From the NCBI GenBank assembly GCA_038209745.1, contig JBBQXJ010000027.1, positions 1-53,892 of the forward strand: a stretch of DNA of 53,892 nucleotides. Reading direction: 5' to 3'. Source of the stretch: Verrucomicrobiota bacterium (GTDB lineage Bacteria > Verrucomicrobiota > Verrucomicrobiia > Limisphaerales > CANJSG01). The notes beneath the pieces are model-generated. The model saw only the letters and a program-made list of their open reading frames with translations, was not told the origin of the DNA and did no database searches. This document shows, piece after piece, positions 39,659-53,892 of this stretch; position 1 is the stretch's first letter, and each line of letters begins with the position of its first letter. The position numbers were made by a program, and so were the translations under genes.

Positions 39659-39971
39659 GGATCAATTGAAACGGAATCGTCCTGAAAAACAACCAAGGCC
39701 AAATGCAAAAAGGCCAATCTGGATGCCTTAAAAGCCGGCTCGGCAGGCCTTTTAAACCCAACAAAGTAAAATTTTGTGAGAAACCTCTTAAGGTGCCCAA
39801 GCGGAGGCCGATAGGGAAAAAGTCGATGGAAGGGCCTATGTTCAGATGCGGGTTCAGCTGAGCTCAAAATTTCATCAATTCGCGTTTGACAGCCGTCCAC
39901 GCTCTCAACTAACTATGCCCCTGCCTAATCGCCTGAACTGTTTGGTCCATAAACCAAGGGAAAATGCAGAT

Positions 39972-41168
39972 ATGAAACGAATTACTTCTTCCGTAGGCCT
40001 TGTGGCCTTGGGTGCCGCAAGTTTGCAGGCTGCCTACGCTCCTGGCTTGAGCCAGATGGAAACCTCCAAACCTTGGACGGTCTCCGCAGCGGTGCATGGC
40101 TTTTACGACGACAACTACGCCACTGCACCTTCTGCTTCGAAGCGCGGTAGCTATGGCTTCGATGTCTCTCCGAAGCTGGGTCTCAATTTGGCGATGGATC
40201 AGACCTTGATTCGGGCCTCCTACGAGTACTCCGCCAAGCTTTTTGAAGATCGCTCTGGTAATAAATGGGACCAGTCCCATGTCTTGGATGCAACTTTGGA
40301 CCATGCGTTTTCGGAACGCTACAGCTTGAAGCTGGCTGAAAACTTCGCCAAGTCCCAGGAGCCTGATATTTTCTTCGGAGCAATTCCTCTCCGCTCAAAC
40401 ACGGACAACGTCCACAACCGTGCGAGTGCAGCCTTCACGGGTGCTTTCACGCGGATAATGGGCTACGAGGTCAGCTATCAGAACGATATCTATCGCTATG
40501 ACGACGCGACTCGATCACTTCAGTTGGATCGACTTGAGCACGACATAATGGGGCGGTTGACTTGGTTGCTTCAGGAAGAAACCATTCTTTCTGCGGGTGG
40601 AAAGTATCGCCTCATTCGATATGACAACGGGGACTTCTTCAAGAGGGACGCCGATATTTTCTACGGTTTTGCGGGTATTGATCATCAGATGAGCGCGAAG
40701 TTTGGCGCTTCCGCTCGCTTTGGTTTCTACTACACCGATTACAAGGCCGGTGGTAGCGGCTCGGTAAATCCGTATGCGGATATCTCGGTTACCTACACTT
40801 ATGCCGAACTGAGTTCGCTACAGCTTGGATTCCGGCTCGACCGAAATCAGACAGATATCACTTCTATCGGTGGTGTGACAGTTTTGGGTCAAAATACGAC
40901 CGGCGGATATCTCCAGTGGAACCACCAACTGGCTTCTCGCCTGAGTGCTGTTGGTTCCGTGGTGGCGACAAGTTCACAGTTCGACGTTGGGAACAATAAT
41001 AGCAGCCAAGCGGACCTCTTGGGAGCTGTTTCCGTGGGGTTGAACTACATGATCTCCGACCATTTTTCAACCGATGCGGGCTATAGCTACACCCGCCTTT
41101 CCTCAGAGGTTAACAGCCGCTCCTACAGCCGTAACCGGGTCTATGTCGGCGTGACTGCTAAGTTCTAA
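39972..41168 (+). CDS. Outer membrane beta-barrel protein associated with polysaccharide export
   Basis: Signal peptide, amphipathic strands, Y.RNRVYVG.TAKF C-terminus; precedes wzc/wza. Confidence 0.82.
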   Translation: MKRITSSVGLVALGAASLQAAYAPGLSQMETSKPWTVSAAVHGFYDDNYATAPSASKRGSYGFDVSPKLGLNLAMDQTLIRASYEYSAKLFEDRSGNKWDQSHVLDATLDHAFSERYSLKLAENFAKSQEPDIFFGAIPLRSNTDNVHNRASAAFTGAFTRIMGYEVSYQNDIYRYDDATRSLQLDRLEHDIMGRLTWLLQEETILSAGGKYRLIRYDNGDFFKRDADIFYGFAGIDHQMSAKFGASARFGFYYTDYKAGGSGSVNPYADISVTYTYAELSSLQLGFRLDRNQTDITSIGGVTVLGQNTTGGYLQWNHQLASRLSAVGSVVATSSQFDVGNNNSSQADLLGAVSVGLNYMISDHFSTDAGYSYTRLSSEVNSRSYSRNRVYVGVTAKF

Positions 41169-41191
41169 GCTCGGAAAAACTTGGTCGTTTG

Positions 41192-41233
41192 ATTAGGAGG
41201 CTGGACACCTAGGTTTCAGCCTCCTAATTTTTT
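41192..41233 (+). terminator. Intrinsic terminator-like hairpin inside the export operon
   Basis: Perfect 12-bp stem ATTAGGAGGCTG/CAGCCTCCTAAT with a T tract ending 3 nt before the wzc ATG. Confidence 0.7.
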
Positions 41234-41236
41234 CTT

Positions 41237-43414
41237 ATGGACCCAATCAAATCTCCCGAATCGAGCGAATCGAAGCTCCATTTCCTGGACTACTGGCGCA
41301 TAGTCCGGATTCGCAAAACGGTCATCATCATCGTCTTTTTGTTGGTGATGATCACCACGACTGCGATCACTTTGTTGATGTCCAAGACCTATTCGAGTTT
41401 TGCTCGGATCTCGGTTGACAAGGACAAGAGCGACGTCGAGGGATTGGGTATGGAGCGGGCTGTTTCCGGATATGACCCTTTCTTTCTTCAGACGGAGTTT
41501 GAGAAGATCACTTCCCAAGTCGTTCTGGACGAGGTGATTTCGATATTGAAACTACAGGCAAAGTGGAGCAAGCGCTATGCGGATGGAGAGTCGCTTCCGA
41601 TTACCAAGGTTCGGCAATATCTCAAGAGCTCCCTTCAGGTGAAGCTCTCCCGCAATACAAGTCTGATCGAGATCTGGGCTTACAGCGAAGACAAGGAAGA
41701 GGCGGCGCAGCTGGCCAACAGTGTTGCCGAGGTTTACAAAGAATCCCGCCTCACAAAGCGTAAAGAGATCAAAAAGAAGGGTATTCAGGTCTTGCAGGAG
41801 CAGTTGGCTGTTCGACAGAAGGAATTGGCTGGTTTGCAGGCCGTTCTCAACGAAATCAGAAGGACGAACGAGATCACATTTCTCGATGAAAATAGCCTCA
41901 ATAGTTATCAATTGCTGCAGACGGAAGAGTTGCAACACATTCAAATGGAGAAATCTAGCGCGGCCTTGCGCTTCGATGCCGAGAGTCTCCGGTTGACTCA
42001 AATTGAATTGCTGACCAGAGAGCAGTTAAGGAACTCGATGGAAACGATCTATCCCGATGCCACTCTGGGGAGACTTGCCCAAGATTACGCGGTGCAGGTC
42101 CAGGCGCTCACTTCAATTGGGCAGAACAAGTCTGATAGCCATCCGGACGTCCAAGAACATGCGGCGGTTGTTGCAAAAATCCAATCCCAGTTGGACGGCA
42201 AAATTGGTGGAATAATTCTAGGATTGAAGATCGCAGCGGCTACAGACAAGGCGACATTGGATAACCTGACCACTCAACTTAAAGAGCAGGAGTCCAAGAG
42301 TGGGGCACTCAAAGCCAAACTCGTTCCTTACACATTGGTCAAAGAGGATGTCGATCAGGCTAAGAGAGTTATCTCGGCGCTTCAACTGAGGGTCGAACAG
42401 GAAACGATCGATTCGCAGCTGCCGATGGAGTCCGTTGTAACGGTTCACGACGTGGCATTCCCGGATGTGAAGCCAGTTAGGCCAAACGTCTACCTCAACC
42501 TTACTTTGGGCGTTGTTGTCGGATTGGTTCTCGGAGTTGGTTTGGCCTTCTTCATTGAGTATTTGGACACCAGCGTGAAGACGATCGACGACGTTGAACG
42601 CGCGCTCCAAGCTCCAGTCTTGGCTGTCATTCCACAGAATGTCGGAACAATTCTCTTCGAAGGGCCAGAAAGTCCCCATGCGGAAGCCTATAGAGTCTTG
42701 CGCACCAACATACTATTCGCCCGCAAGGACCCTTCCTGGAATGCTGCCACCGTCGTTTCCGGCGGTGCTGGTGAGGGTAAATCCACCACGTTGTTCAATT
42801 TAGCGACGATCTTTGCCCAGAATGGAAGCCGAGTGCTCGTGGTGGACTCGGATCTTCGCCGTCCAAGCATCCACAAGATCATCAATGTATCCAACAACAT
42901 TGGATTGACCAATTACCTGCTTAAACAGAACAGCTTGGAAGAGGTCATCCAGCGGACGACGTTGGCAACTTTGGACGTGATGCCCTCCGGCAAGTTGCCG
43001 TCCAGTTCGATGGGTATTCTCAGTTCCCCGCAGATGAAGGGTCTGATCAGTGAGTTGAAGCGTCGCTACGACTTCGTCTTCTTCGACTCACCTCCCATCA
43101 TGGGTATCAGTGACGCCGCCGTTTTGGCCAGCGAGGTCGACATGGTGGTGCAGGTGATCCAATATCGTCGTTATCCGCAGCCGATGACCATCCGCGCGAA
43201 GCAGATGATTCAGAAGGTCGGTGGCAATCTTCTTGGTGTCGTGTTGAACAACATCAACATGAGTCAGGACGAAAACTACTACTACTACAGCGGTTACTAT
43301 TACGACTACTACTCCAAACAGGACGATGACGATGAGGATTCGTCGAAGAAGAAGGCGGCGGAAAAAGCAGGTGTGCCGGCCAACGGTCGATTGGAGATCA
43401 AGGGCAAGTATTGA
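41237..43414 (+). CDS. wzc: Polysaccharide co-polymerase / tyrosine autokinase
   Basis: Two TMs around a coiled coil, EAYRVLRTN, GEGKST, DSDLRRP, FDSPP, Tyr cluster YYYYSGYYYDYY. Confidence 0.95.
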   Translation: MDPIKSPESSESKLHFLDYWRIVRIRKTVIIIVFLLVMITTTAITLLMSKTYSSFARISVDKDKSDVEGLGMERAVSGYDPFFLQTEFEKITSQVVLDEVISILKLQAKWSKRYADGESLPITKVRQYLKSSLQVKLSRNTSLIEIWAYSEDKEEAAQLANSVAEVYKESRLTKRKEIKKKGIQVLQEQLAVRQKELAGLQAVLNEIRRTNEITFLDENSLNSYQLLQTEELQHIQMEKSSAALRFDAESLRLTQIELLTREQLRNSMETIYPDATLGRLAQDYAVQVQALTSIGQNKSDSHPDVQEHAAVVAKIQSQLDGKIGGIILGLKIAAATDKATLDNLTTQLKEQESKSGALKAKLVPYTLVKEDVDQAKRVISALQLRVEQETIDSQLPMESVVTVHDVAFPDVKPVRPNVYLNLTLGVVVGLVLGVGLAFFIEYLDTSVKTIDDVERALQAPVLAVIPQNVGTILFEGPESPHAEAYRVLRTNILFARKDPSWNAATVVSGGAGEGKSTTLFNLATIFAQNGSRVLVVDSDLRRPSIHKIINVSNNIGLTNYLLKQNSLEEVIQRTTLATLDVMPSGKLPSSSMGILSSPQMKGLISELKRRYDFVFFDSPPIMGISDAAVLASEVDMVVQVIQYRRYPQPMTIRAKQMIQKVGGNLLGVVLNNINMSQDENYYYYSGYYYDYYSKQDDDDEDSSKKKAAEKAGVPANGRLEIKGKY

Positions 43415-43431
43415 TCCTGGAATTCAGAGTT

Positions 43432-44070
43432 ATGCGTCAAATCTCGTCCGTAAAACTGCTAGGGTTGTTGGTTATTCTAGCTGGAATGATGTTGGGGAGT
43501 TCAGGGTGCAACAGCAGTCGCCTCCATCGGGAATCGAACCACGGGGCGGCGGACGGCGGGGGCAACAGTGCGGTGCCCACAAATGCCACGTCAGCCACCG
43601 AGCTGCAGTTTCGCCCCGGGGATTCGATCAAGATCGAATTCAGCGACACCGAATTGAAAACGGTGGAGACCGAGATCAAACACGACGGCGTCATCTCTCT
43701 GGATCTGGTGGATCAGATCAAGGTGTCGAACAAAACTCCCCGGGAAGTGGAGCAGGAAATCAGGGGGCTTTATGTTCCGAAATTCTACAAGCGACTCACC
43801 GTAACCGTGACTCCTGGGACCCGGTTCTTCTACGTTGGCGGAGAAGTAAAGCAGGTGAACCGCTTCGCTTATTCTGGCAGAATTACCCTGCTGAAAGCGA
43901 TCCAGTCGGCTGGCGGATTCACAAACTTTGCCAACAAGCGGGAAGTTCGGGTCATTCGGGCGAACGGGCAGGTGATCCTTGTTGATTGTGTCGCTGCTCT
44001 CAATGATCCGAGTCTGGATATCGAGATCTATCCGAACGACCAGATCAACGTGAAGCCGTCAATCATCTGA
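43432..44070 (+). CDS. Wza-like (OPX) polysaccharide export lipoprotein, short form
   Basis: Lipobox SSGC, PGD.I, DG.ISL, YVGGEV, AGGFT.FA (SLBB). Confidence 0.88.
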   Translation: MRQISSVKLLGLLVILAGMMLGSSGCNSSRLHRESNHGAADGGGNSAVPTNATSATELQFRPGDSIKIEFSDTELKTVETEIKHDGVISLDLVDQIKVSNKTPREVEQEIRGLYVPKFYKRLTVTVTPGTRFFYVGGEVKQVNRFAYSGRITLLKAIQSAGGFTNFANKREVRVIRANGQVILVDCVAALNDPSLDIEIYPNDQINVKPSII

Positions 44071-44462
44071 TGCTCCATCTGAGTTTGCGCAGTGATTCAG
44101 TGGCGGGCACCGATACGGTTGCCCGCCATTTTCCGTTTCGAATTGGGAGGTCCGAGGTTGCTTCTCTACGATTGGAGCGTGCAGGAATCTGGGAACAGCA
44201 CGCTGAACTCAATTTAGGAAACGGCTGCGTGACCATTGCGAGCTGCGATCAAGCTCCGGTGCGAATCAATGGGTGTCAGATGACAGAGCCCTGCATTGTT
44301 CATTGCGGCGATCTGCTCGAACTGGGATCCGTGAAGATCATCGTAGGACTTTCGTCTGCTGATCGACGGAAGGACCTTCTGCAACAAGGGCTGCTGGCTG
44401 GGTCGATCCTTGGACTGACTCTGGCCCAAGGTGCAATCTTTTGGTGGCTGTCGAATCAGTGA
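44070..44462 (+). CDS. FHA-domain protein with C-terminal TM helix
   Basis: PFRIGRS, QHAEL, RING, GDLLELG; TGATG overlap with the wza-like gene. Confidence 0.72.
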
Positions 44463-46003
44463 CGGAAGTGCCGGAAACCGGTAAAAGCCATGGCGACCCC
44501 GCGTTCGTCCGCTGCTGCGATGACCTCTGGATCGCGAACGGAACCTCCGGGTTGAATGGCTGCGGTGGCACCGGCTTCGGCGGCGGCGATCAGTCCGTCC
44601 GGAAAGGGAAAAAACGCGTCGCTGCAAACCACGCTGCCTTTGAGCGATAGCGTCGCTTCACCAGCTTTCCAAACCGCGATTTGGCTGGAATCCACTCGGC
44701 TCATCTGACCGGCGCCAACTCCGAGCGTCTGGTTGGGTCCGCAATAGACGATCGCGTTCGACTTCACGTGTTTCACCACGCGCCAGCCGAACAGCATGGC
44801 TTCGATCTCCTCCGCAGTGGGGTGTCGTTTTGTCACAATTTTCAGATCCGTGGCGGTGACGCGGCGGATGTCGCGTTCTTGGAGCAGATAGGAGCCGGAC
44901 GCGACGCTGCGCACGTCGAATCCAGTGGTTGGGACCGGGAAGGTCTTCATGACGAGCAGACGGAGGTTCTTTTTCTTTTGCAAGAGAGCGAGGGCCCCGG
45001 AGGAAAAAGCGGGAGCGACGATCACTTCGCTGAAGATCTCGGCGATTGCTTCCGCACAGGCCAGATCAAGCGGTTGGTTGACGGCGATGATGCCACCGAA
45101 CGGGGCCTGCTTGTCGGTGGCGAAGGCGCGATCCCAAGCGTCGCGAAGATGGGCCCCGCGGCCGATGCCGCAGGGATTGGAGTGTTTCAGGATGGCCAAG
45201 GTCGGGGTTTCACCGGCGAATTCGCCGATCAACTGCGCGGCAGCGGTCAGATCGAGAATGTTGTTGTAGGAGAGTTCCTTGCCGTGGAGCTGCTCGAAAT
45301 GGCTGTGGAACTCGCCGAACAACGCGGCTTTCTGGTGGGGATTCTCGCCATACCGCAGCGGTTGGGCCAAGGGCGCGTGGAGGCGGAGGGTCGAAGGCAA
45401 TTCACCCGAGATGCCAAAGCTTTTCTCCAGATGGGTGGCGATCGCCGAGTCGTAGGCGGCGGTGCGGGCATAGACCTTGGCAGCGAATTTGCGACGCTGT
45501 TCCAACGTGGTTTCGCCAGTCCGGCGGAGGACTTCGGCTACCTCTGGATAGTCCGCCGGGTCCGTGAGGACGGTTACACTGTCATGGTTTTTGGCCGCGC
45601 TGCGGAGCATGGACGGGCCGCCGATGTCGATGTTTTCGATGGCATCGTGGAGGGACACGCCCGGCCTGGCCACGGTCTGTTCGAACGGATACAGATTCAC
45701 GACAACCAGATCGATCGGCTTGATGTCGTGCTGGGCGACGGTGTTTTCGTGGGTGGCGTTGCCACGCAGATAGAGGAGGCCCGCGTGGACCTTGGGATGC
45801 AGGGTCTTTACCCGGCCGCCGAGCATCTCGGGAAAGCCAGTGTAGTCGCTCAGTTCGATGGTCTCGAGACCGGCGTCGCGCAGGGCTTTGCCGGTCCCGC
45901 CGGTGGAGATCAGTTCGATGCCGGCCGCGACCAACTCTCTGGCGAAATCAACCAGACCGGATTTGTCGGAGACTGAGAGGAGGGCGCGTTGAATCTTCGG
46001 CAT
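44456..46003 (-). CDS. purH: Bifunctional AICAR transformylase/IMP cyclohydrolase
   Basis: [47 protein letters not shown]. Confidence 0.98.
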
Positions 46004-46263
46004 AGGAGCGGACAAAATCTCTTTTCCAGCGTGGGTCCGTCAACGCGAAGTTCTCCACACCCATGCCGGTGCCGCATGTAATCATTGCTCGATGGAGCCG
46101 GCGTTGAGTGCGTGCTCTCTCGTGGGGGGTGCATTGTGGATTCGCGATTTGCCGAATTGCTGGCGTCAGTGTCGGTCCCGTCTCGCTTCGTTTGGGAAAA
46201 GGACACGCCGGATTCATCGAGTCGCCAGGCCGGCGCCCTGAATCGTGGCCGAATCCCCGATGC

Positions 46264-46608
46264 TCAATGCGCCGCAAGTTCTGCTGGCACTTCGAGCGTC
46301 TCGTGCTCGGAAACGGTTTCCATGGTGCGAAAGCGCTCGGCGTTGAAGCCCAGTTCCTGGCGGTGGACGTTGAACGCGTCGGCCGGGTTCTTGAGCTCTT
46401 CCAGCAGAATGCCGATCTCGCCGTCGCTGTCGCCGGGTTTGTTGTTCAGGCCCTTCATGTGGCCGGCGTTGAGCATCTTGCCCCGGCCGATATAGACGGC
46501 TCGCACGGTGTAGACGGAGTCCTTTTTGGGCAGCTGACGGTAGACGAGCTGGACCTCGCGCGGGAAGGAATCGTCGATGCAGACGACTTTCTGACCTTTC
46601 TGAAACAT
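46264..46608 (-). CDS. Hypothetical protein, 114 aa (possible SH3-like barrel)
   Basis: MFQKGQKVVCIDD..YTVR..GILLEE..GFNAERF with strong GC3 bias. Start moved to MFQK. Confidence 0.72.
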   Translation of the reverse strand: MFQKGQKVVCIDDSFPREVQLVYRQLPKKDSVYTVRAVYIGRGKMLNAGHMKGLNNKPGDSDGEIGILLEELKNPADAFNVHRQELGFNAERFRTMETVSEHETLEVPAELAAH

Positions 46609-46864
46609 TTCGTGTGGCGGCTTTGGCGGCGGTTTCTCGGGTGTCGAGAGCCGGCCAAGCACTCGACGATTTTGCGGCGACGCAACGGAATCGCAAGAGG
46701 TGAAATCGGCTTCAGCCCAGGACCCTGCTCTCTCAAAAGTTGTGACACCGGGACGGATTGGCATGGAGCGTTCGGCTGTGCCGGAGGACGCCCACTGCCG
46801 CGATTGAACTCCTGTGGTTTGGGGTGGTCCTACCTTTCCCATCGAGTCGGCCCGGGGATAACCG

Positions 46865-46893
46865 TTGGCAAACGAATCGGTGTTCACTAGGTT
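46865..46893 (+). promoter_or_regulatory. Putative sigma70 promoter of the permease/SPFH/ATPase operon
   Basis: TTGGCA-N17-TAGGTT, then AGGA just upstream of ATG 46915. Confidence 0.45.
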
Positions 46894-46914
46894 CGCGGCC
46901 TTTATTTAGGAACA

Positions 46915-47880
46915 ATGCGCCAATTTCTGACCATCGCAGTCAATGCGTTCATGGAGCTCGTCCGGCAGCCGGTCTTCCTGCTGCTGATGACCGCCTCCAC
47001 GATCTTCTGCGTATTCCTGTCCTGCGTGAACTACTTCGGGTTTGGCGATGAACCGAAGCTCGTCCGCAACAGCGTCCTCGCCGTCATGATGCTTTCCGGC
47101 CTTTTCGGAGCCGTGCTGAGCGCCTCGGCCTCGGTCGCGCGCGAAATCCGGACCGGCACCGCGCTGGCTGTCTTGTCGAAGCCCGTGGGCCGCGCCCAGT
47201 TCCTGATCGCCAAGTTCGCCGGTCTGGCCGCCGTGCTGGCGCTGATCACCTTCATCAATCTTCTCGGGTGTCTGGCCGCCTCCAAGATGGCGTTCGATGC
47301 CTATGGATCGGTCGACTACGCCTCGCTCACGATCTTCGTCAGTGCGGTGGTCGCGGCGTATGCCGTGGGCGGATTCAGCAACTTTTTCCTCCGGCGCAAC
47401 TTCGTCTCGGACGCCACGTTTGCGCTGGTGGTGCTGCTGACGCTGGCGTTCGTGGTGATCTGGGCGATGGAACGGGAGACGCGGATGTTCGTCGGGAAGC
47501 CGGAGGTGAACTGGCAGATGGTGCCGTGCGCGGTCCTCATTCTTTTCGCCCTCTGGATCCTCGCCGCTTTGGCGCTGGCCCTCTCGACGCGGCTCGACGT
47601 CATTCCCACGCTGGCTTTATGCAGCGGGTTGTTCCTGCTCGGGCTGATGTCCGACTACCTCTTTGGCCGACCGGCGGAGGAGGGTTCGATCTGGGCCCAA
47701 GTGCTCTACGCCGTGACGCCGAACTGGCAACTGTTCTGGGCGGTGGACGCCTTGGACACGAGCAAGGCCAAGATCATCCCGTGGGCCTACGTGGGGAAAG
47801 CCTTTGGCTACGTCGCCGCCTATGCGGGCGCGGCGTTGGCTCTGGCGATGATGATGTTTGAAGACCGTGAACTGAGCTGA
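46915..47880 (+). CDS. ABC-2-type permease-like membrane protein
   Basis: IA.NAF.E..RQP, EIRTGT...LSKPV.R.QF...KF.G, about 8 TMs, C-terminal F..REL. Confidence 0.85.
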   Translation: MRQFLTIAVNAFMELVRQPVFLLLMTASTIFCVFLSCVNYFGFGDEPKLVRNSVLAVMMLSGLFGAVLSASASVAREIRTGTALAVLSKPVGRAQFLIAKFAGLAAVLALITFINLLGCLAASKMAFDAYGSVDYASLTIFVSAVVAAYAVGGFSNFFLRRNFVSDATFALVVLLTLAFVVIWAMERETRMFVGKPEVNWQMVPCAVLILFALWILAALALALSTRLDVIPTLALCSGLFLLGLMSDYLFGRPAEEGSIWAQVLYAVTPNWQLFWAVDALDTSKAKIIPWAYVGKAFGYVAAYAGAALALAMMMFEDRELS

Positions 47881-47881
47881 C

Positions 47882-49774
47882 ATGGAACGAAACCATTTGA
47901 AAATAGGACTGGTGAACTGGTTGGCGCTGCTGGCCGGCGCGGTCGTGTGCCTCGCCATCGCCCGTTACGTGAAGTCGGCCGCCGGCATGGTGGCCACGGT
48001 CCCTCTCTTGATCGGAACCCTGGTGGCGCTGGTGAGCTGGTTCCAGATGCGGCTGGAGGAACGCGAACGGCTGGAACGTCTGGAGTTCGACGAATTGAAC
48101 AAGGAGAAGGGTTCCAGCGCGCTGTTCAACACCGACGAGGCCGACACCTTCGCCGCCCGCCAGTCTCGCGAATCGTTCGAGAAGTATTTTGTCCGTGGAT
48201 TCACCCTGCTGCTCTTGCTCGGCGAGATCGCCGCCGTGGTCGTGCTTTGGCGCTGGTTGGGCTCGGATCCGGCCCAGATCGTCGCGGAGAAGGCCGGAGT
48301 CGGCATGGCGGTGATGGGCATGATCGCCCTCCTGTTCTTCCTGCTCGGCAAATACGCGACCGGGATCTCCCGCTTGAAGGACGAGCGTCTGGTCGGTCCC
48401 GGCGGCGCCTATCTCCTTTTGGGATCCGTGGTCGCCGTGGCGGTGATCGCCGGCGCGTTGGCGCCGGTCATGGGCGGGTATCCGCAGTGGGACCGCTACA
48501 TCGCGCGGGGCTTGGTCGTGGTTATCGGGCTGATCGGCTTGGAGACGTTCATCACGTTGGTGGCGGAGATCTATCGCCCCCGGGTCCGGGGCAAGGCCGC
48601 GCGGTTGATCTATGACAGCCGGTTTGTCGGGATTGTCGGACAGCCGGATTCGCTCTTCCGGACGGCCGGCCAGGCGTTGGACTACCAGTTCGGTTTCAAG
48701 GTGTCCGACACGGAGTTCTTCCAGTTCCTGAAGCGCTATTTTCCCGCGTTGTTGTTGGTCCAGGTTGTCATTCTCTTCGCCTCCACTTGTGTCGTCTTCC
48801 TACAGCCGGGCGAAGAGGGATTGTTGGAGCGTTTCGGCAAACGAGCCGCTTCGGCCGGAGTGCTCGAGCCCGGAGCCCACTTCAAGCTGCCTTGGCCCAT
48901 CGATTCGGTGCGGCGCTTCAACACGAAGGAGGTCCACAGCCTGCACGTTGGGTTCGTGCCGGCCGACGACGAAGGCAATGCGCCGATCCTTTGGAACGTG
49001 GCCCACTACAAGGAGGAGTTCAATCTGCTGGTCGCGAGCCGGGAACAGGTGGCGACCAACTCCACCGGCGGTGTCGCCGTGCCGGTCAGCCTCATCACGG
49101 TCAGCATTCCCGTGCAGTTCCAGATCCGGAACGTCGCCGACTGGGCCTACAACTACGTCGATCCGGCGAGCGTGCTGGAGAAGATCGCGACCCGCGAGGT
49201 GGTCCACAACCTCGTCTCCGCCGACCTGAACGAGGTCATGTCCACCGGTCGCGAACAGGCCGCGCGCGAACTCAAGACCCGGATCCAGGCGGTCGCGGAC
49301 GAATTGAACCTCGGCGTCGACATCGTCTTCGTGGGCCTCCAGGACATCCATCCGCCGACCAAAGTGGCCGCAGCCTACCAGGCCGTGATGGGCGCCAAGC
49401 AGACGGTCGAAGCCATGCGGTTCGCCGCCGAAGGCTATGCGGCCCGGACCGTCCCGCTGGCCCAGGCGGAGGGGCAGAAGCGGATCAACGAATCCGAGGC
49501 CTACGCCTTCGAGCGGATCGCCGGGGCCCAGGCCATCGCGGCGCGGTTCACGAACCAGATCACGGCCTTCGCCGCTTCGCCCAACGTCTATCCGACCCGG
49601 GAATACCTGCGGATCTTCGCCGCCGCCACGGCCGGAGCCCGCAAGATCATCGTGGCCACGACCAACAGCCACGAGATCGTCCAGCTGAACCTCGAAGAGC
49701 GCCTGCGCAGCGACCTTGGAGATGTCTACGTCGCGCCCACCACCCGCGAACAGAACGCGGCCCCGAAGAAGTAG
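47882..49774 (+). CDS. HflK-like SPFH protein with a large multi-TM N-terminal domain
   Basis: About 7 TMs in the first 300 aa, then GLLERFGK, PG.HFKLPWPID, LQDIHPP..VAAAY and an AEG/A.AE coiled coil. Confidence 0.88.
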   Translation: MERNHLKIGLVNWLALLAGAVVCLAIARYVKSAAGMVATVPLLIGTLVALVSWFQMRLEERERLERLEFDELNKEKGSSALFNTDEADTFAARQSRESFEKYFVRGFTLLLLLGEIAAVVVLWRWLGSDPAQIVAEKAGVGMAVMGMIALLFFLLGKYATGISRLKDERLVGPGGAYLLLGSVVAVAVIAGALAPVMGGYPQWDRYIARGLVVVIGLIGLETFITLVAEIYRPRVRGKAARLIYDSRFVGIVGQPDSLFRTAGQALDYQFGFKVSDTEFFQFLKRYFPALLLVQVVILFASTCVVFLQPGEEGLLERFGKRAASAGVLEPGAHFKLPWPIDSVRRFNTKEVHSLHVGFVPADDEGNAPILWNVAHYKEEFNLLVASREQVATNSTGGVAVPVSLITVSIPVQFQIRNVADWAYNYVDPASVLEKIATREVVHNLVSADLNEVMSTGREQAARELKTRIQAVADELNLGVDIVFVGLQDIHPPTKVAAAYQAVMGAKQTVEAMRFAAEGYAARTVPLAQAEGQKRINESEAYAFERIAGAQAIAARFTNQITAFAASPNVYPTREYLRIFAAATAGARKIIVATTNSHEIVQLNLEERLRSDLGDVYVAPTTREQNAAPKK

Positions 49775-49792
49775 TTTCCCATTTTTACCGAC

Positions 49793-50701
49793 ATGAAGAA
49801 GTCCTCCCTCTCATTGGTCGCCGGCCTGGTGCTGGCCTTGATCTTCGGTCTCCGGATGATCTGCTTCCAGGTCCGCGTGACCGAGGTCGCGCTCCTGACG
49901 ACCTTCGGCAAGCCCACCGCGCCCTACACCGAGCCCGGTTTGAAGTTCAAGCTGCCCTGGCCCATCCAGGACGTGCTGAAGTTCGACAAGCGGGTGCAGA
50001 ACTTCGAGGGCCGCTTCGAGGAGACTCCCACTCGCGACGGCTACAACCTCCTCGTCTCCGTCTATGCCGGATGGCGGATCGTCGAGCCCGCCAAGTTCCG
50101 TGAAGCCTTCGTAGACGGCTCCATGAGCCGCGCGCAATCCACGCTGGAAGAGCGGTTCCGGAGCGCCAAGAACGCCGTCGTGGGCCAGCACCCGTTCTCC
50201 GACTTCGTCTCCACCGATCCGCAGCAGCTGAAGTTCGCCCAGATCGAGACCGAGATCCTGGAGTTCGTCCGCAAGGACATCCAGGAACGCTACGGCATGG
50301 AGATCGCCTTCCTCGGCATCAATCGCCTCGGCCTGCCCGAGAGCGTCACGCAGAAGGTCTTCGACCGCATGACCGAGGAACGCCAGCGCGTCACCCAGAA
50401 GCTGCAGGCCGACGGCGAACGCGAGTCGATCAACATCCGGTCCGCCGCTGATCGTGACCGTTCGCGCATCCTGGCCGACGCCGAGGCGAAAGCGACCGAG
50501 GTTCGTGGCGCGGCCGATGCCGAGGCCGCCCAATACTACGCCAGCTTCGAGAAGAACCCCGAGCTGGCCATCCTGCTCCAGAAGCTCGCCGCGCTGGAGG
50601 CTTCGTTGAAGGACCGGGCCACTCTCGTGATGGATCCGAACACCCCGCCGTTCGACCTGCTGGACCCGAAGAACAAGATTGGCGGCTCCACCCGGAAGTG
50701 A
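49793..50701 (+). CDS. HflC-like SPFH protein
   Basis: Single TM, PGLKFKLPWPIQ, DKR, WRI..P..F, LP...VFDRM..ER, G.ADAEAA..YA. Confidence 0.9.
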   Translation: MKKSSLSLVAGLVLALIFGLRMICFQVRVTEVALLTTFGKPTAPYTEPGLKFKLPWPIQDVLKFDKRVQNFEGRFEETPTRDGYNLLVSVYAGWRIVEPAKFREAFVDGSMSRAQSTLEERFRSAKNAVVGQHPFSDFVSTDPQQLKFAQIETEILEFVRKDIQERYGMEIAFLGINRLGLPESVTQKVFDRMTEERQRVTQKLQADGERESINIRSAADRDRSRILADAEAKATEVRGAADAEAAQYYASFEKNPELAILLQKLAALEASLKDRATLVMDPNTPPFDLLDPKNKIGGSTRK

Positions 50702-50704
50702 TCC

Positions 50705-51907
50705 ATGAGCGATTCCCAACATCCTCACGACGACCATGGCCACGAGCACGGGCATGATCACGACCACGACGAACCTGATCATGGCGTGAAAGAGGGCGAG
50801 ATCGTCCTGAAGAAGCCCGCGTCCGGGAAGCCCGTGCCGGAACCCGTCGCACATCAGGTGGAGGACGCCGGCACCCGCGCCTTGGCCGATGCGCTGAAGA
50901 GCAGCTTCGCCATCGTGCGCTGGTTGATGATGGGGCTCGTCGGGTTGTTCATCTTTTCCGGCGTGTTCACCGTCGGTCCCCAGGAGCGCGCCATCATCCT
51001 CCGCTTCGGCAAGCCCCGCGGAGCGGCCGACCAGCAGCTGCTCGGTCCCGGCCTCCACTTCGCCCTTCCCCGGCCCATCGACGAGGTGGTGAAGATCCCC
51101 GCCACCCAGACCTACCTTGTCCGCTCCACCATTGGCTTCTACAACTGGCCCCCGGAAATGGAGGCGGCCCGGGAGAAACCGGCTCCGGCGCCCTCCCTCA
51201 ACCCGATGATCGACGGCTACGTCCTCTCGGGTGACGCGAACATCATGCACGTCCGCGCCACGGTCCGGTACACCCTGGAGAAGCCGGTCGACTACGTGTT
51301 CCAGTTCGTCTCCGCCAGCAACACGGTCCAGCACGCTCTGGACAGCGCCGTGGTCTACGCCTCAGCGCAGTTCCCGGTGGACGACGCCCTGCGCCTGAAC
51401 CAGGCCGGCTATCGCGAACGCATCACCGCCCGGCTGAACCAGCTCGTCGCGGCCGACGCGCTCGGCATCAGGATCGATCCCGTCGACGTTCTCGTGGAGC
51501 CGCCGCTCGTGGTGAAGCCGGCCTTCGACGCCGCCCTCGCCGCCGAAGCCGAACGCAGCAAGGCGGTCAACGGTGCCCATGGCTACGCGAACGCTCTCCT
51601 GAGCAAGGCGGAGGGCGAAGCCAAGGCCGTCGTCAACCAGGGCGAGGCCGACCGTTCGAAGATCGTGAAGATGGCCAGTTCCGAGGCGAAGTATTTCCAG
51701 GACCGGCTGCCGGAGTTCGAGCGGAACCCGGAACTCTTCCGGGAGCGTCTCCTCACCGAGTCCATGAGCCGCATCCTGACCAACGCCCAGGACAAGTTCT
51801 TCCTGCCCGCCTCCGTCGGTGGCGCGTCGCGCGAACTTCGCATACTCTTGAACCGCGAGCCGTCGAAGCCGCCCCAGCCGGTTTCCGCCGATCCCGGTGC
51901 GCGATAA
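50705..51907 (+). CDS. HflK-like SPFH protein with a His/Asp-rich N-terminus
   Basis: 9 His in the first 27 aa, single TM, LRFGK, PGLHFALPRPIDEV, GDANI, PP..V..AF, AEGEA, P.L.RERL. Confidence 0.9.
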   Translation: MSDSQHPHDDHGHEHGHDHDHDEPDHGVKEGEIVLKKPASGKPVPEPVAHQVEDAGTRALADALKSSFAIVRWLMMGLVGLFIFSGVFTVGPQERAIILRFGKPRGAADQQLLGPGLHFALPRPIDEVVKIPATQTYLVRSTIGFYNWPPEMEAAREKPAPAPSLNPMIDGYVLSGDANIMHVRATVRYTLEKPVDYVFQFVSASNTVQHALDSAVVYASAQFPVDDALRLNQAGYRERITARLNQLVAADALGIRIDPVDVLVEPPLVVKPAFDAALAAEAERSKAVNGAHGYANALLSKAEGEAKAVVNQGEADRSKIVKMASSEAKYFQDRLPEFERNPELFRERLLTESMSRILTNAQDKFFLPASVGGASRELRILLNREPSKPPQPVSADPGAR

Positions 51908-51925
51908 CCACACCTCTCCGCAGCC

Positions 51926-53892
51926 ATGAACGTTTCCACCAAGGCCATCACGAAAGCCGATCACGGTCACCACGACCATGATCACGACCATCATCATGAG
52001 CACGACGATGATTGCGGCTGCGGCCACGACCATTCCCATTCCGAGATCCATCTTGGCCGGACCATTCTCGGCTTGATCCTCGTCCTGAACGCCTACGTGG
52101 TCGGGTTCGTGTTTCCGGAGGCCAAGCTCGTGGGCGGCTACAGCGCCATGATCGGCGCGGCCATTCTCGGCTATCCGATCGTCCTCAGCGCATTTCAGGA
52201 TCTCCGGCGCAGCACCCTCAGCACGAACACGCTCGTGGCCCTCGCGGTCGTCGCATCCTTCGCCAGTGGCAACTACGAGGAAGCTGGATTCGTCGCGTTC
52301 TTCATGCTGCTCGGCGAAATCATCGAGACCCGCACCGCCGATGGAGCCCGCCAGTCGATCGAGTCCCTCATCAAGCTCACTCCCACCAAGGCCCGCCGCG
52401 TCACCGCCAAGGGCGAAGAGGAAGTGGCCACCAAGGACCTCGTGGTCGGCGATGTCATCCGTGTCCGCCCCGGCGACAACGTCGCGGCGGACGGCGCGAT
52501 CACCAGCGGCCAGGGATCCTTCAACCAGGCGAACATCACCGGTGAATCGCTCCCCGTGGACAAGAAACCCGGCGACGAAGTCTTCGCCGGCACGATCAAT
52601 CTCACCGGAGTGCTGGAGATCAAAGTCAGCCGCGCCGGCCGGGATACCACGCTCGGGCGGGTGCGCGACCTGATCCTCGCCGCCGAGAAGACCAAGCTCC
52701 CCATCATGCGGATCATCGACCAGTACATGGTCTATTACACCCCGCTGGTGTTGTTGATCGGAGCGCTTGTCTGGGCCTTCACCTATGATCTGGAGCGGGT
52801 CATCTCCGTCTTCATTGTGGCCTGTCCGTGCGCCTTCGTGCTCGCCACGCCCACCGCGATGGTCGCGGCGCTCTCCGCCGCCGCCCGCCTGGGCATCCTG
52901 ATCAAGAACGTCGCGGACATCGAGCTGGCCGCCCGCATCAACGCCTTCGTCTTCGACAAGACCGGCACGCTGACCACCGGAAAGCTGGCCGTCAGTCGCT
53001 TGGCGCCGTTGAACGGGGTCACTCCCGCCGAACTCCTCCGCGTCGCGGGCTCCGCCGAGAAATACAGCAACCATCCCACGGCCAAAGCATTGGCCAATCT
53101 ATCCGCCGAAGCCGGCGTCACGCTGGCCGAGCCCCAGGACTTTACCGAGACCGCCGGTCGTGGCATCCAGGCCAAGGTGGACGGAGTCGTCGTCACCGTC
53201 GGACGGGCCCAATGGCTGAAGGACAACGGGGTGACCGAGGACTTCATGCAGTCGGTCGATCTCAACGAGACCGAGGGCTACAGCCTCGTCTTTGTCGCGC
53301 GCAACGGACAGTGCATCGGTTGGGTCGGCCTGCAGGACCAGACCCGCGCCGAGGCCCGCGAATCATTGGCCGCACTGAAGGATGTCGGCGTCCGCCGCAT
53401 CGCCATGGTCAGCGGCGATCGTCAACCCGTAGCCACCCGCGTGGCCGCCGAGATCGGTTGCGAAGAGGTCGTCGGCGACTGTCTCCCGGAGAACAAGGTC
53501 GAGTTCGTCCGCGCCATGAAGGCCAAGGGCTACCGCGTGGCGGTGGTCGGCGACGGCGTCAACGACGCCCCCGCGCTTGCCGCCGGCGATCTCGGTATCG
53601 CGATGGGCGCCGCCGGATCCGAAGTCGCCATCCACAGCGCCACCATCGCGCTGATGAACAACGATCTTCGCCGTCTTCCCTTCCTCGTGAAGCTTTCGCG
53701 CCAGACCCGCGGGGTCATCAACCAGAACTTTCTCATCGGCATCGTCTTCGTCATCGGGGGTCTGGTGCTGGCGGCCCTCGCCTACATCAATCCCATCGTG
53801 GCCGCTTTGATCCACGTCGTCGGTTCACTGGTGGTGGTCTTCAACAGCTTCCGCCTCGTCCGCGCCGGCGAGGAACTCGAGCCCTATCATCC
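51926..53892 (+). CDS. P1B-type heavy-metal-translocating ATPase (3' end beyond window)
   Basis: Manual translation from MNVSTK stays in frame to the window end: His-rich leader with CGC, TGES, ACPC, DKTGTLT, HP, SGD, GDGVNDAPAL. Confidence 0.95.
   Translation, partial: MNVSTKAITKADHGHHDHDHDHHHEHDDDCGCGHDHSHSEIHLGRTILGLILVLNAYVVGFVFPEAKLVGGYSAMIGAAILGYPIVLSAFQDLRRSTLSTNTLVALAVVASFASGNYEEAGFVAFFMLLGEIIETRTADGARQSIESLIKLTPTKARRVTAKGEEEVATKDLVVGDVIRVRPGDNVAADGAITSGQGSFNQANITGESLPVDKKPGDEVFAGTINLTGVLEIKVSRAGRDTTLGRVRDLILAAEKTKLPIMRIIDQYMVYYTPLVLLIGALVWAFTYDLERVISVFIVACPCAFVLATPTAMVAALSAAARLGILIKNVADIELAARINAFVFDKTGTLTTGKLAVSRLAPLNGVTPAELLRVAGSAEKYSNHPTAKALANLSAEAGVTLAEPQDFTETAGRGIQAKVDGVVVTVGRAQWLKDNGVTEDFMQSVDLNETEGYSLVFVARNGQCIGWVGLQDQTRAEARESLAALKDVGVRRIAMVSGDRQPVATRVAAEIGCEEVVGDCLPENKVEFVRAMKAKGYRVAVVGDGVNDAPALAAGDLGIAMGAAGSEVAIHSATIALMNNDLRRLPFLVKLSRQTRGVINQNFLIGIVFVIGGLVLAALAYINPIVAALIHVVGSLVVVFNSFRLVRAGEELEPYH

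Follow-up and report, generated by a model that had tools for sequence, protein, structure and literature searches.

The analysed stretch of DNA (the window) is a contig of 53,892 nucleotides from a Verrucomicrobiota bacterium (assembly GCA_038209745.1, contig JBBQXJ010000027.1), and it ends in five genes that encode, in order, an ABC-2-type permease (perm), a long HflK-type SPFH protein (K630), an HflC-type SPFH protein (C302), a second HflK-type SPFH protein (K400) and a P1B-type heavy-metal ATPase (the ATPase, or pump). We conclude from comparisons of sequence that these genes probably specify an HflK/C-type SPFH ring dedicated to the P1B metal pump, within a conserved, putative eight-gene membrane operon. 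The window is the entire contig C27 of a 4.58 Mb genome in 140 contigs (92% complete). Its five open reading frames (ORFs) lie on the + strand in one direction with intergenic gaps of 1, 18, 3 and 18 nucleotides, in agreement with an earlier note on this DNA, and Pfam and NCBIfam scans bear out the gene families that the note had named (ABC2_membrane_2 just under its cut-off, three Band_7 proteins and a P1B ATPase).

The same note had stated that the window holds no ftsH, hflX or ABC ATPase gene. The statement stands for the first two, since the genome's one FtsH is encoded on contig C8 and its hflX on C117, both unlinked to the cluster; the lack of an ABC ATPase is a contig-end effect, because the contig breaks inside the P1B ATPase gene and the ABC ATPase gene lies on C13. 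The end of C27 (window 53760-53892) overlaps the reverse-complemented end of C13 (G000:C13 70800-70931) by roughly 130 bases, and the two contigs therefore join. The overlap completes the ATPase to 689 residues with 34 additional residues that include a second His-rich tail, this one C-terminal, GDHDHDHDHHGHSH. After the ATPase, C13 encodes an ABC ATPase of 408 residues (DrrA/GldA class; C13 70659-69433), a second, ABC-2-like permease of 609 residues and a 495-residue protein. The window genes are the front part of a conserved, predicted eight-gene membrane operon of Verrucomicrobiota.

Linkage and natural fusion of the pump and the SPFH genes

The strongest evidence for a tie between the pump and the SPFH proteins comes from natural ATPase::HflK fusions. 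The ATPase was searched against 1.84 billion cluster representatives and the best 150 relatives were taken. Nineteen of these are 965-1073 residues long, and 18 of the 19 have E1-E2_ATPase and Hydrolase domains and, at the C-terminus, Band_7; in the 19th, hexapeptide repeats and an HMA domain are present instead. The SPFH part of the fusions is of the HflK type: 17 of the 18 reach 123-193 bits against the phylum's canonical HflK (66-84 bits in P0232), and scores are 68-130 bits against K630 and close to nil against HflC. All six fusion frames that were checked read through ∼950-1010 codons without a stop. The neighbourhoods of the fusions were explored in one metagenome scan with fusion P0160, which gave 19 loci. 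The order fusion, HflC type, HflK type is found in 10 of them; three loci are cut after the HflC gene, and in three others the cut falls within the fusion or directly behind it. The remaining three contain the ATPase only, two of them on short contigs and one (L153) as an unfused relative whose flank extends 6 kb downstream. At the level of encoded proteins, the fusions show that the K-C-K trio occurs elsewhere in a form whose first subunit is covalently linked to the pump, and because such fusions exist the pump and the ring would be expected to touch.

A gene-neighbourhood survey, which the earlier note had put forward as a check, found the trio kept beside the P1B ATPase in both close and distant relatives. 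Close relatives were represented by the best 80 of 587 confirmed K630 relatives, at 44-62% identity. At 64 of the 80 related loci all five genes follow the window order, contig ends truncate the remaining 16, and no locus contradicts the order. Median identities are highest for the ATPase, at 76% (65 loci), followed by 64% for perm (76 loci), 50% for C302, 48% for K630 and 46% for K400. At the 57 related loci that extend more than 1.5 kb past the ATPase, the same strand continues with an ABC ATPase (53/57), an ABC-2-like permease with a large loop (49/57) and a protein of ∼514 residues (46/57; the p514 family). The five-gene arrangement of the window is far beyond chance.

The distant set comprised 26 regions from 24 genomes of the phylum, with K630 identities of 25-39%. 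K630, C302, K400 and the ATPase are contiguous in 23 of these regions; one region is cut by a contig end, and two, both from genus g103, contain K630 alone. Twenty-two distant regions have sufficient flank, and the ABC genes occur in 12 of them and the upstream permease in nine. Because the ABC genes and the upstream permease are often missing from distant copies, the invariant core is the SPFH trio plus the pump, which represents a distinct subtype of P1B ATPase; with many distant copies lacking them, the ABC genes cannot be essential clients.

Co-occurrence was followed across 300 sampled genomes of the phylum. A search with K630 at E up to 1e-10 matched 137 of the 300, plus the window's own genome, and among the matches listed 90 genomes carry K630 in full length at E up to 1e-55. 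Of the 300, 113 contain the ATPase subtype (E up to 1e-130). The co-occurrence count omits 11 listed K630 rows that cover the SPFH part only and come from ORFs of at most 461 residues, which are canonical HflK. Among the matches listed, the long HflK is found in 113 genomes, and 112 of the 114 genomes with either protein have both; the two genes lie within 8 kb of each other on one contig in 101 of these 112 co-carrying genomes. In the single genome with the ATPase only (G145) a divergent trio adjoins the pump, and in the single genome with K630 only (G299) the pump is cut by a contig end. Comparison of these genomes shows the four core genes to be inherited together.

The core is present in two full copies, on sister or separate tree branches, in G177 (L102, L103) and G070 (L100, L101). 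Some cluster contigs (L019, L029, L040, L045, L053, L059, L074 and L080) are titled Bifidobacteriaceae, Pseudomonadales or Candidatus Aquilonibacter and are probably mislabelled bins. In a plasmid collection, the ATPase query matched at least 5000 records, all matches listed being below 40% identity, and the K400 query matched nine records, of which both that were inspected are canonical hflKC pairs without a pump. Records of 4.6-5.4 Mb in this collection (L131 = NZ_CP069303.1; H33, H36) are evidently whole chromosomes filed as plasmids.

Properties of the encoded proteins

All three SPFH proteins are set apart from canonical HflK and HflC. K630 (134.0 bits) and K400 (144.2 bits) do not reach the 159.4-bit cut-off of TIGR01933 (HflK), and C302 scores 136.8 bits against TIGR01932 (HflC), just over the cut-off of 134.4; the Band_7 match of K630 is 61.4 bits. 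For canonical pairs of this phylum the scores are 264-288 bits (HflK) and 265-269 bits (HflC), about twice the window values. A phylogeny against canonical HflK/HflC, also proposed in the earlier note, was obtained as a quick maximum-likelihood tree whose 63 rows comprise 16 trios, 7 canonical pairs (that of E. coli among them) and 1 prohibitin-like outgroup. K630, K400 and C302 each form one clade apart from the canonical proteins with SH-aLRT values of 98-99 (K400 98, C302 99). C302 groups with the HflC side; K630 and K400 both belong to the HflK side, among whose clades this tree does not resolve the branching order. Scores and tree show the trio, as far as sequence relationships go, to be a paralogue set distinct from canonical HflK/HflC.

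Canonical hflK was found above the curated cut-off in 37 of 301 genomes. At least four genomes (G004, G023, G247 and G284) carry a canonical hflK-hflC pair, with best matches to E. coli HflK/HflC, alongside the cluster; because canonical hflKC co-exists with the cluster in these and in Pseudomonas aeruginosa, the trio is not just the housekeeping pair. The earlier note had further suggested looking in the window's genome for a separate hflKC and ftsH, and the outcome was divided: ftsH is present, whereas no canonical HflK/HflC was detected by the curated cut-off search in this 92% complete assembly. The other SPFH genes of the genome are only two, one prohibitin-like and one YdjI-like.

K630 has the architecture of HflK, with an anchor helix, a periplasmic SPFH domain, a long coiled coil and an adjacent HflC gene, and the C302 gene sits between two HflK-type genes. 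The model of K630 (pLDDT 79.6) comprises a six-helix domain (residues 1-231), a cytoplasmic linker with the conserved motifs EIYRPRVKGK and ALDYQFGFKVSETWFY, transmembrane helix 7 (276-303), the SPFH domain (304-490) and a helix (493-565). Its SPFH part matches HflK of 7vhp_E with Z 16.4 over 267 residues. The six long helices of the N-terminal domain, at residues 5-231, are modelled with pLDDT mostly above 85. Residues D204 and E221 of this domain are invariant. Its best structural matches are to the membrane domains of two CDF transporters of zinc and manganese, ZnT3 (9jj1_A; Z 14.8, rmsd 3.8, 194 residues) and SLC30A10 (9kvx_B; Z 14.6, rmsd 2.5, 172 residues), values to be read against the ∼13 that helical bundles can reach by chance; ferritin-like bundles follow at Z of at most 12.3. 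An hhalign comparison with 24 CDF domains of the phylum gave a probability of 38.7% over 108 columns, which is weak sequence support, and the HxxxD/DxxxD metal-site residues of CDF (PF01545; transmembrane helices 2 and 5) are not kept in that alignment. Residues 1-287 have no Pfam match at E up to 10, a profile of the domain found nothing below E 0.2 among PDB sequences, and its Atlas matches reach only 0.80. The modelled domain is possibly CDF-like, and it occupies the place where the ATPase::HflK fusions carry the pump.

K400 begins with MSDSQHPHDDHGHEHGHDHDHDEPDHG. Its His/Asp-rich tail has at least three His in 48 of 71 close orthologues and at most one in 13 of the 71, and shows weak matches to the His-rich loops of DmeF and RcnA. 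The tail would be expected to bind metal.

The ATPase scores 556.9 bits against TIGR01525 (cut-off 346) and contains E1-E2_ATPase and Hydrolase domains. C300-P301-C302 (the CPC of transmembrane helix 4), D344-K-T-G-T348 and H630 are invariant in 42 orthologues. The N-terminus is His-rich, with at least five His in 62 of 65 orthologues, and has a conserved C-x-C-G-H-[DE]-H motif (CxC-GHDH in the window). The last helix contains an invariant His in L-H-x-x-G/S-S; the window protein reads L-I-H-V-V-G-S, and this His lines up with that of the HEGST motif in sCoaT (7qbz). Among solved pumps sCoaT is the best match (344.7 bits), with CopA and ZntA nearly as close (scores for the Cd, Cu and Zn pumps, 344.7, 337.7 and 293.2). 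The last two helices of P1B pumps are said to carry YN and MxxSS in subgroup 1 (Cu+), K and DxG in subgroup 2 (Zn/Cd/Pb), and SPC and HEGxT in subgroup 4 (Co/Zn); the window ATPase as a whole fits none of these signatures. Zn, Cu, Co and Cd are the candidate metals. A complex prediction for the ATPase with K630 residues 1-300 (score 0.00, mark 0.32) counts for neither side.

The perm match to PF12679 (ABC2_membrane_2) is 26.6 bits, under the gathering cut-off of 27.2. Its model (pLDDT 68.9, pTM 0.75) retrieves NosY chains of NosDFY at all of Foldseek ranks 1-10, the best being 7qba_E (E 6.3e-4, TMt 0.72). A NosY-type fold in the perm model and an ABC ATPase of the DrrA/GldA class in the cluster (on C13, and at 53 of 57 related loci) are features shared with NosDFY(L), which delivers copper to N2O reductase. 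Unlike that system, the cluster has no NosD, NosL or NosZ, identity is 15-18%, and its two permeases differ from each other, one of them having a large loop. The p514 family has no Pfam or NCBIfam match, and in the Atlas it appears only in unnamed clusters from Lentisphaerota and Verrucomicrobiota. Candidate permease::K630 fusions (open frames of 880-1240 residues) were rejected: the two genes do not share a reading frame, and the long open frames are ORFs extended too far in high-GC DNA.

Features of the locus and its upstream region

Table 1. Coordinates of the cluster genes, of domains within them and of the upstream promoter-like element (window numbering).
Feature	Position	Strand	Basis
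Promoter-like element	46856..46893	+	GGATAACC; TTGGCA (-35-like), 17-nt spacer, TAGGTT (-10-like), 22 nt before first ATG
perm: ABC-2-type permease, NosY-like fold, 321 aa	46915..47880	+	PF12679, model, Foldseek
K630: long HflK-type SPFH protein, 630 aa	47882..49774	+	Band_7, TIGR01933, model
K630 six-helix N-domain, aa 1-290, possibly CDF-like, without CDF metal site	47882..48751	+	Model, structure match
C302: HflC-type SPFH protein, 302 aa	49793..50701	+	TIGR01932, tree
K400: second HflK-type SPFH protein, 400 aa, His/Asp-rich cytoplasmic N-terminal tail	50705..51907	+	TIGR01933, tree
K400 His/Asp-rich tail, aa 1-27	50705..50785	+	Translation; metal binding inferred
P1B-type heavy-metal ATPase, 655 aa, open at contig end	51926..53892 (ORF 51926-53890)	+	TIGR01525

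The earlier note had also placed a putative promoter ahead of the genes. A promoter-like element is kept there across 70 upstream regions of related loci, whose MAFFT alignment gives the consensus GGAaTAACC-gTTtGCA-N17-TAAnCT, and we infer that the window element acts as a promoter; it was not called by a generic sigma-70 promoter scan. Internal terminator-like sites are not above shuffles (8 versus 6.1 +/- 2.7), Rfam has no match in 45900-47100 at E up to 1, and no Zur-type or Fur-family box was recognised upstream of the cluster in the alignment of upstream regions. An inverted repeat, TGTGC-N6-GCACA, stands 60-110 nucleotides before the promoter-like element in L018, L048, L049, L064, L077, L078 and L086; the window version (46770-46800) is imperfect, and another subset of related loci has ATTTTGAAC and CGGGCGATGGC in its place. 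Both GGAATAACC and TGTGC-N6-GCACA are candidate protein-binding sites, and the inverted repeat and the sequences that replace it may be operator sites for some regulator.

A divergent ORF on the - strand (46264-46887) has no family match and is protein-like only in its C-terminal ∼120 residues. Because the ORF as drawn overlaps the conserved promoter element, its true start is probably further in. The upstream neighbours, this small divergent ORF and purH, are not kept beside the cluster in related loci. Farther upstream, positions 39846-44462, flanked by priA and purH, have a GC content of 0.51-0.52 against 0.61-0.68 elsewhere and encode a beta-barrel porin, a Wzz/BY-kinase-like protein, a Wza-like polysaccharide exporter and a small FHA-domain protein; this stretch looks like an exopolysaccharide export island.

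Known systems and alternative explanations

In the proposed arrangement the SPFH trio would assemble into a hetero-oligomeric ring like that of HflK/C, on the periplasmic side of the inner membrane. The pump would lie in or at this ring and have it as a dedicated scaffold by which it is held, stabilised or gated. The first HflK of the window's lineage would bear its six-helix membrane domain where the fusions bear the pump. The His/Asp tail of K400, which resembles the termini of the pump itself, would collect or pass on divalent metal, and the NosFY-like ABC-2 transporter would be a lineage-specific addition, possibly handing metal to periplasmic targets. The earlier note had imagined a three-subunit SPFH cage enclosing or organising both a metal ATPase and the permease. 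The part concerning the ATPase is upheld as an evolutionary tie by the fusions and by the 112 of 114 genomes among the matches listed, with enclosure in a cage and independence from FtsH as conjectures; the part concerning the permease is not upheld, since it is missing in many distant copies and so is no essential client.

The E. coli HflK/HflC-FtsH complex (PDB 7vhp) offers one parallel in that HflK-type and HflC-type subunits are encoded side by side, and both combine a single N-in anchor helix with a periplasmic SPFH domain and a coiled coil. The cluster differs in having three subunit types instead of two, in scores that lie under or at the family cut-offs, in its separate clades and in the lack of linkage to hflX or ftsH. 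Its conserved partner gene encodes instead a metal pump, which in relatives is fused to the HflK type.

Of the cases described so far, the nearest is the P. aeruginosa locus PA2439-PA2434, a unit of metal homeostasis in which three SPFH genes directly precede a His-rich P1B ATPase gene, apart from canonical hflKC. The ATPase of that locus, HmtA, is reportedly a Zn/Cu importer. That importer role has been called unconfirmed (PMC10393844). PA2439 (HflK family), PA2438 (HflC) and PA2437 (HflC family) precede hmtA (PA2435) and are 9.0-14.4-fold up in a znuA mutant (PMC4542158, Table 2). Passages of other papers describe a shift of the PA2439 promoter by Zur (PMC8531726), raised levels of the PA2437-PA2439 proteins on zinc depletion (PMC11761036) and induction of the PA2439-PA2437 genes by a zinc-chelating drug, with a table that equates them with PA14_33070, 33080 and 33110 (PMC9431628). 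A 2026 study names the trio PaFlo5-7, reports it as separate from canonical hfq-hflX-hflK-hflC and patchy in distribution, and contains no mention of the neighbouring ATPase (PMC13086221). The window differs from this locus in the extra six-helix domain of its first HflK and in being wrapped in ABC-2 genes, and PA2436 and PA2434 have no shown counterpart in the window cluster. In these excerpts the gene order is in print and its meaning is not, PaFlo5-7 being a scaffold without an assigned function. The claim of the earlier note that such neighbourhoods have no functional description accordingly holds for function, a literature search having found no functional account of an SPFH-P1B coupling, and fails for gene order, which had already been printed for PA2439-PA2435.

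The nearest functional analogue on paper is the effluxosome of Mycobacterium tuberculosis. PacL1-3 are described as clustering and stabilising the P1B ATPases CtpC, CtpG and CtpV in membrane nanodomains; PacL proteins are small membrane proteins encoded in the same operon as P1B ATPases, and their metal-binding tail serves as a metallochaperone (passages of PMC13043812). The proposed scaffold would work alike, with the K400 His/Asp tail as the analogue of the PacL tail. The resemblance is not one of homology, however: PacL proteins are DUF1490, not SPFH, and are described as confined to Actinobacteria.

Several observations weigh against a ring dedicated to the pump. Physical contact between pump and SPFH proteins is deduced from gene linkage and fusions, not from direct observation. 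The upstream permease and the ABC genes are absent from many distant copies, and the K400 His tail belongs to the close clade only, being present in 3 of 25 distant copies. Among the matches listed, 11 of the 112 co-carrying genomes lack adjacency of the two genes. ATPase copies without SPFH neighbours occur in G289 and G169 (family f50) and at locus L153, and in genus g103 (L105, L117, L136) the long HflK has become separated from the other cluster genes; in one g103 genome, C302, K400, the ATPase, the ABC ATPase, permease 2 and p514 are intact on a different contig from K630. The window's genome has one FtsH and no canonical HflK/HflC. The likeness of the P. aeruginosa locus is by gene order and published descriptions, not by sequence comparison, and triple deletion of PaFlo5-7 gave only subtle phenotypes, under conditions that in the passages concerned do not include metal limitation (PMC13086221).

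The lack of canonical HflKC beside a single FtsH means that the trio could still be the partner of FtsH. The trio would then be an HflK/C-type modulator of FtsH for quality control or conditional turnover of the pump, with FtsH in the ring and the pump as its substrate. FtsH is a zinc protease, the fold and family of the trio are HflK/HflC-like, and canonical HflK is present in only 1 of 48 cluster-bearing genomes of family f20, all of which would suit this explanation; P. aeruginosa papers likewise read the PA2437-39 proteins, in the passages that treat them, as FtsH modulators (PMC11761036, PMC9431628). Against it stand the co-existence of canonical hflKC with the cluster in at least four genomes and in P. 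aeruginosa, the unlinked position of ftsH on C8, and the covalent pump::HflK fusions, which a substrate relation leaves unexplained. We regard this alternative as unlikely, though with an appreciable chance. Simple co-regulation would require less of the proteins: the genes would belong to one metal-stress or starvation regulon, and the SPFH proteins would act on the membrane generally, with no specific contact to the pump. The P. aeruginosa locus does lie in the Zur regulon, according to the passages cited above, and its deletion phenotypes are weak, but adjacency of four genes down to 25% identity together with co-occurrence in 112 of 114 genomes among the matches listed rarely arises from co-regulation alone, and co-regulation does not yield gene fusions. 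This explanation appears very unlikely.

Two further readings give a larger role to the ABC-2 genes. The real client of the ring could be the NosFY-like ABC-2 transporter (permease, ABC ATPase, second permease and 495-residue protein), with the pump only supplying metal. The perm and K630 genes are separated by 1 nucleotide and would be translationally coupled, the perm model has the NosY fold, and the ABC ATPase, permease 2 and the 514-residue family lie past the pump at 53, 49 and 46 of 57 close loci. Of the 22 distant regions with sufficient flank, however, 10 have the trio and pump but no detectable ABC genes, the upstream permease is missing in most distant regions, and the fusions link the scaffold to the pump and not to the ABC part, which makes this reading highly improbable. 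A bolder picture, for which we see a slim chance, has the K-C-K proteins form a vault over a membrane patch that contains the pump. Independently of FtsH, the pump would load a private periplasmic chamber with metal, for metallation or buffering, on which the NosFY-like machine and the 495-residue protein would draw to supply periplasmic or outer-membrane targets, and the CDF-like six-helix domain would be a degenerate second transporter serving as a docking site for the pump or as a sensor.

How SPFH rings such as HflK/C, stomatin, prohibitin and flotillin affect the proteins they enclose has yet to be settled, and bacteria offer hardly any defined client other than FtsH. With a ring dedicated to its pump, which is the reading that we favour, the cluster offers a second and genetically hard-wired SPFH client: a metal pump encoded beside, or fused to, a dedicated K-C-K trio. 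The fusions set both stoichiometry and topology and are well suited to cryo-EM; the P. aeruginosa relative, recognised by gene order, is zinc-regulated and genetically tractable; and the eight-gene form of Verrucomicrobiota adds a NosFY-type ABC-2 machine. If the vault picture were true, bacteria would possess a membrane-bounded metal microcompartment made of SPFH proteins and independent of FtsH. If the scaffold controls the stability of the pump, local metal or its hand-over, membrane microdomains would be tied to metal homeostasis beyond the effluxosomes of actinobacteria.

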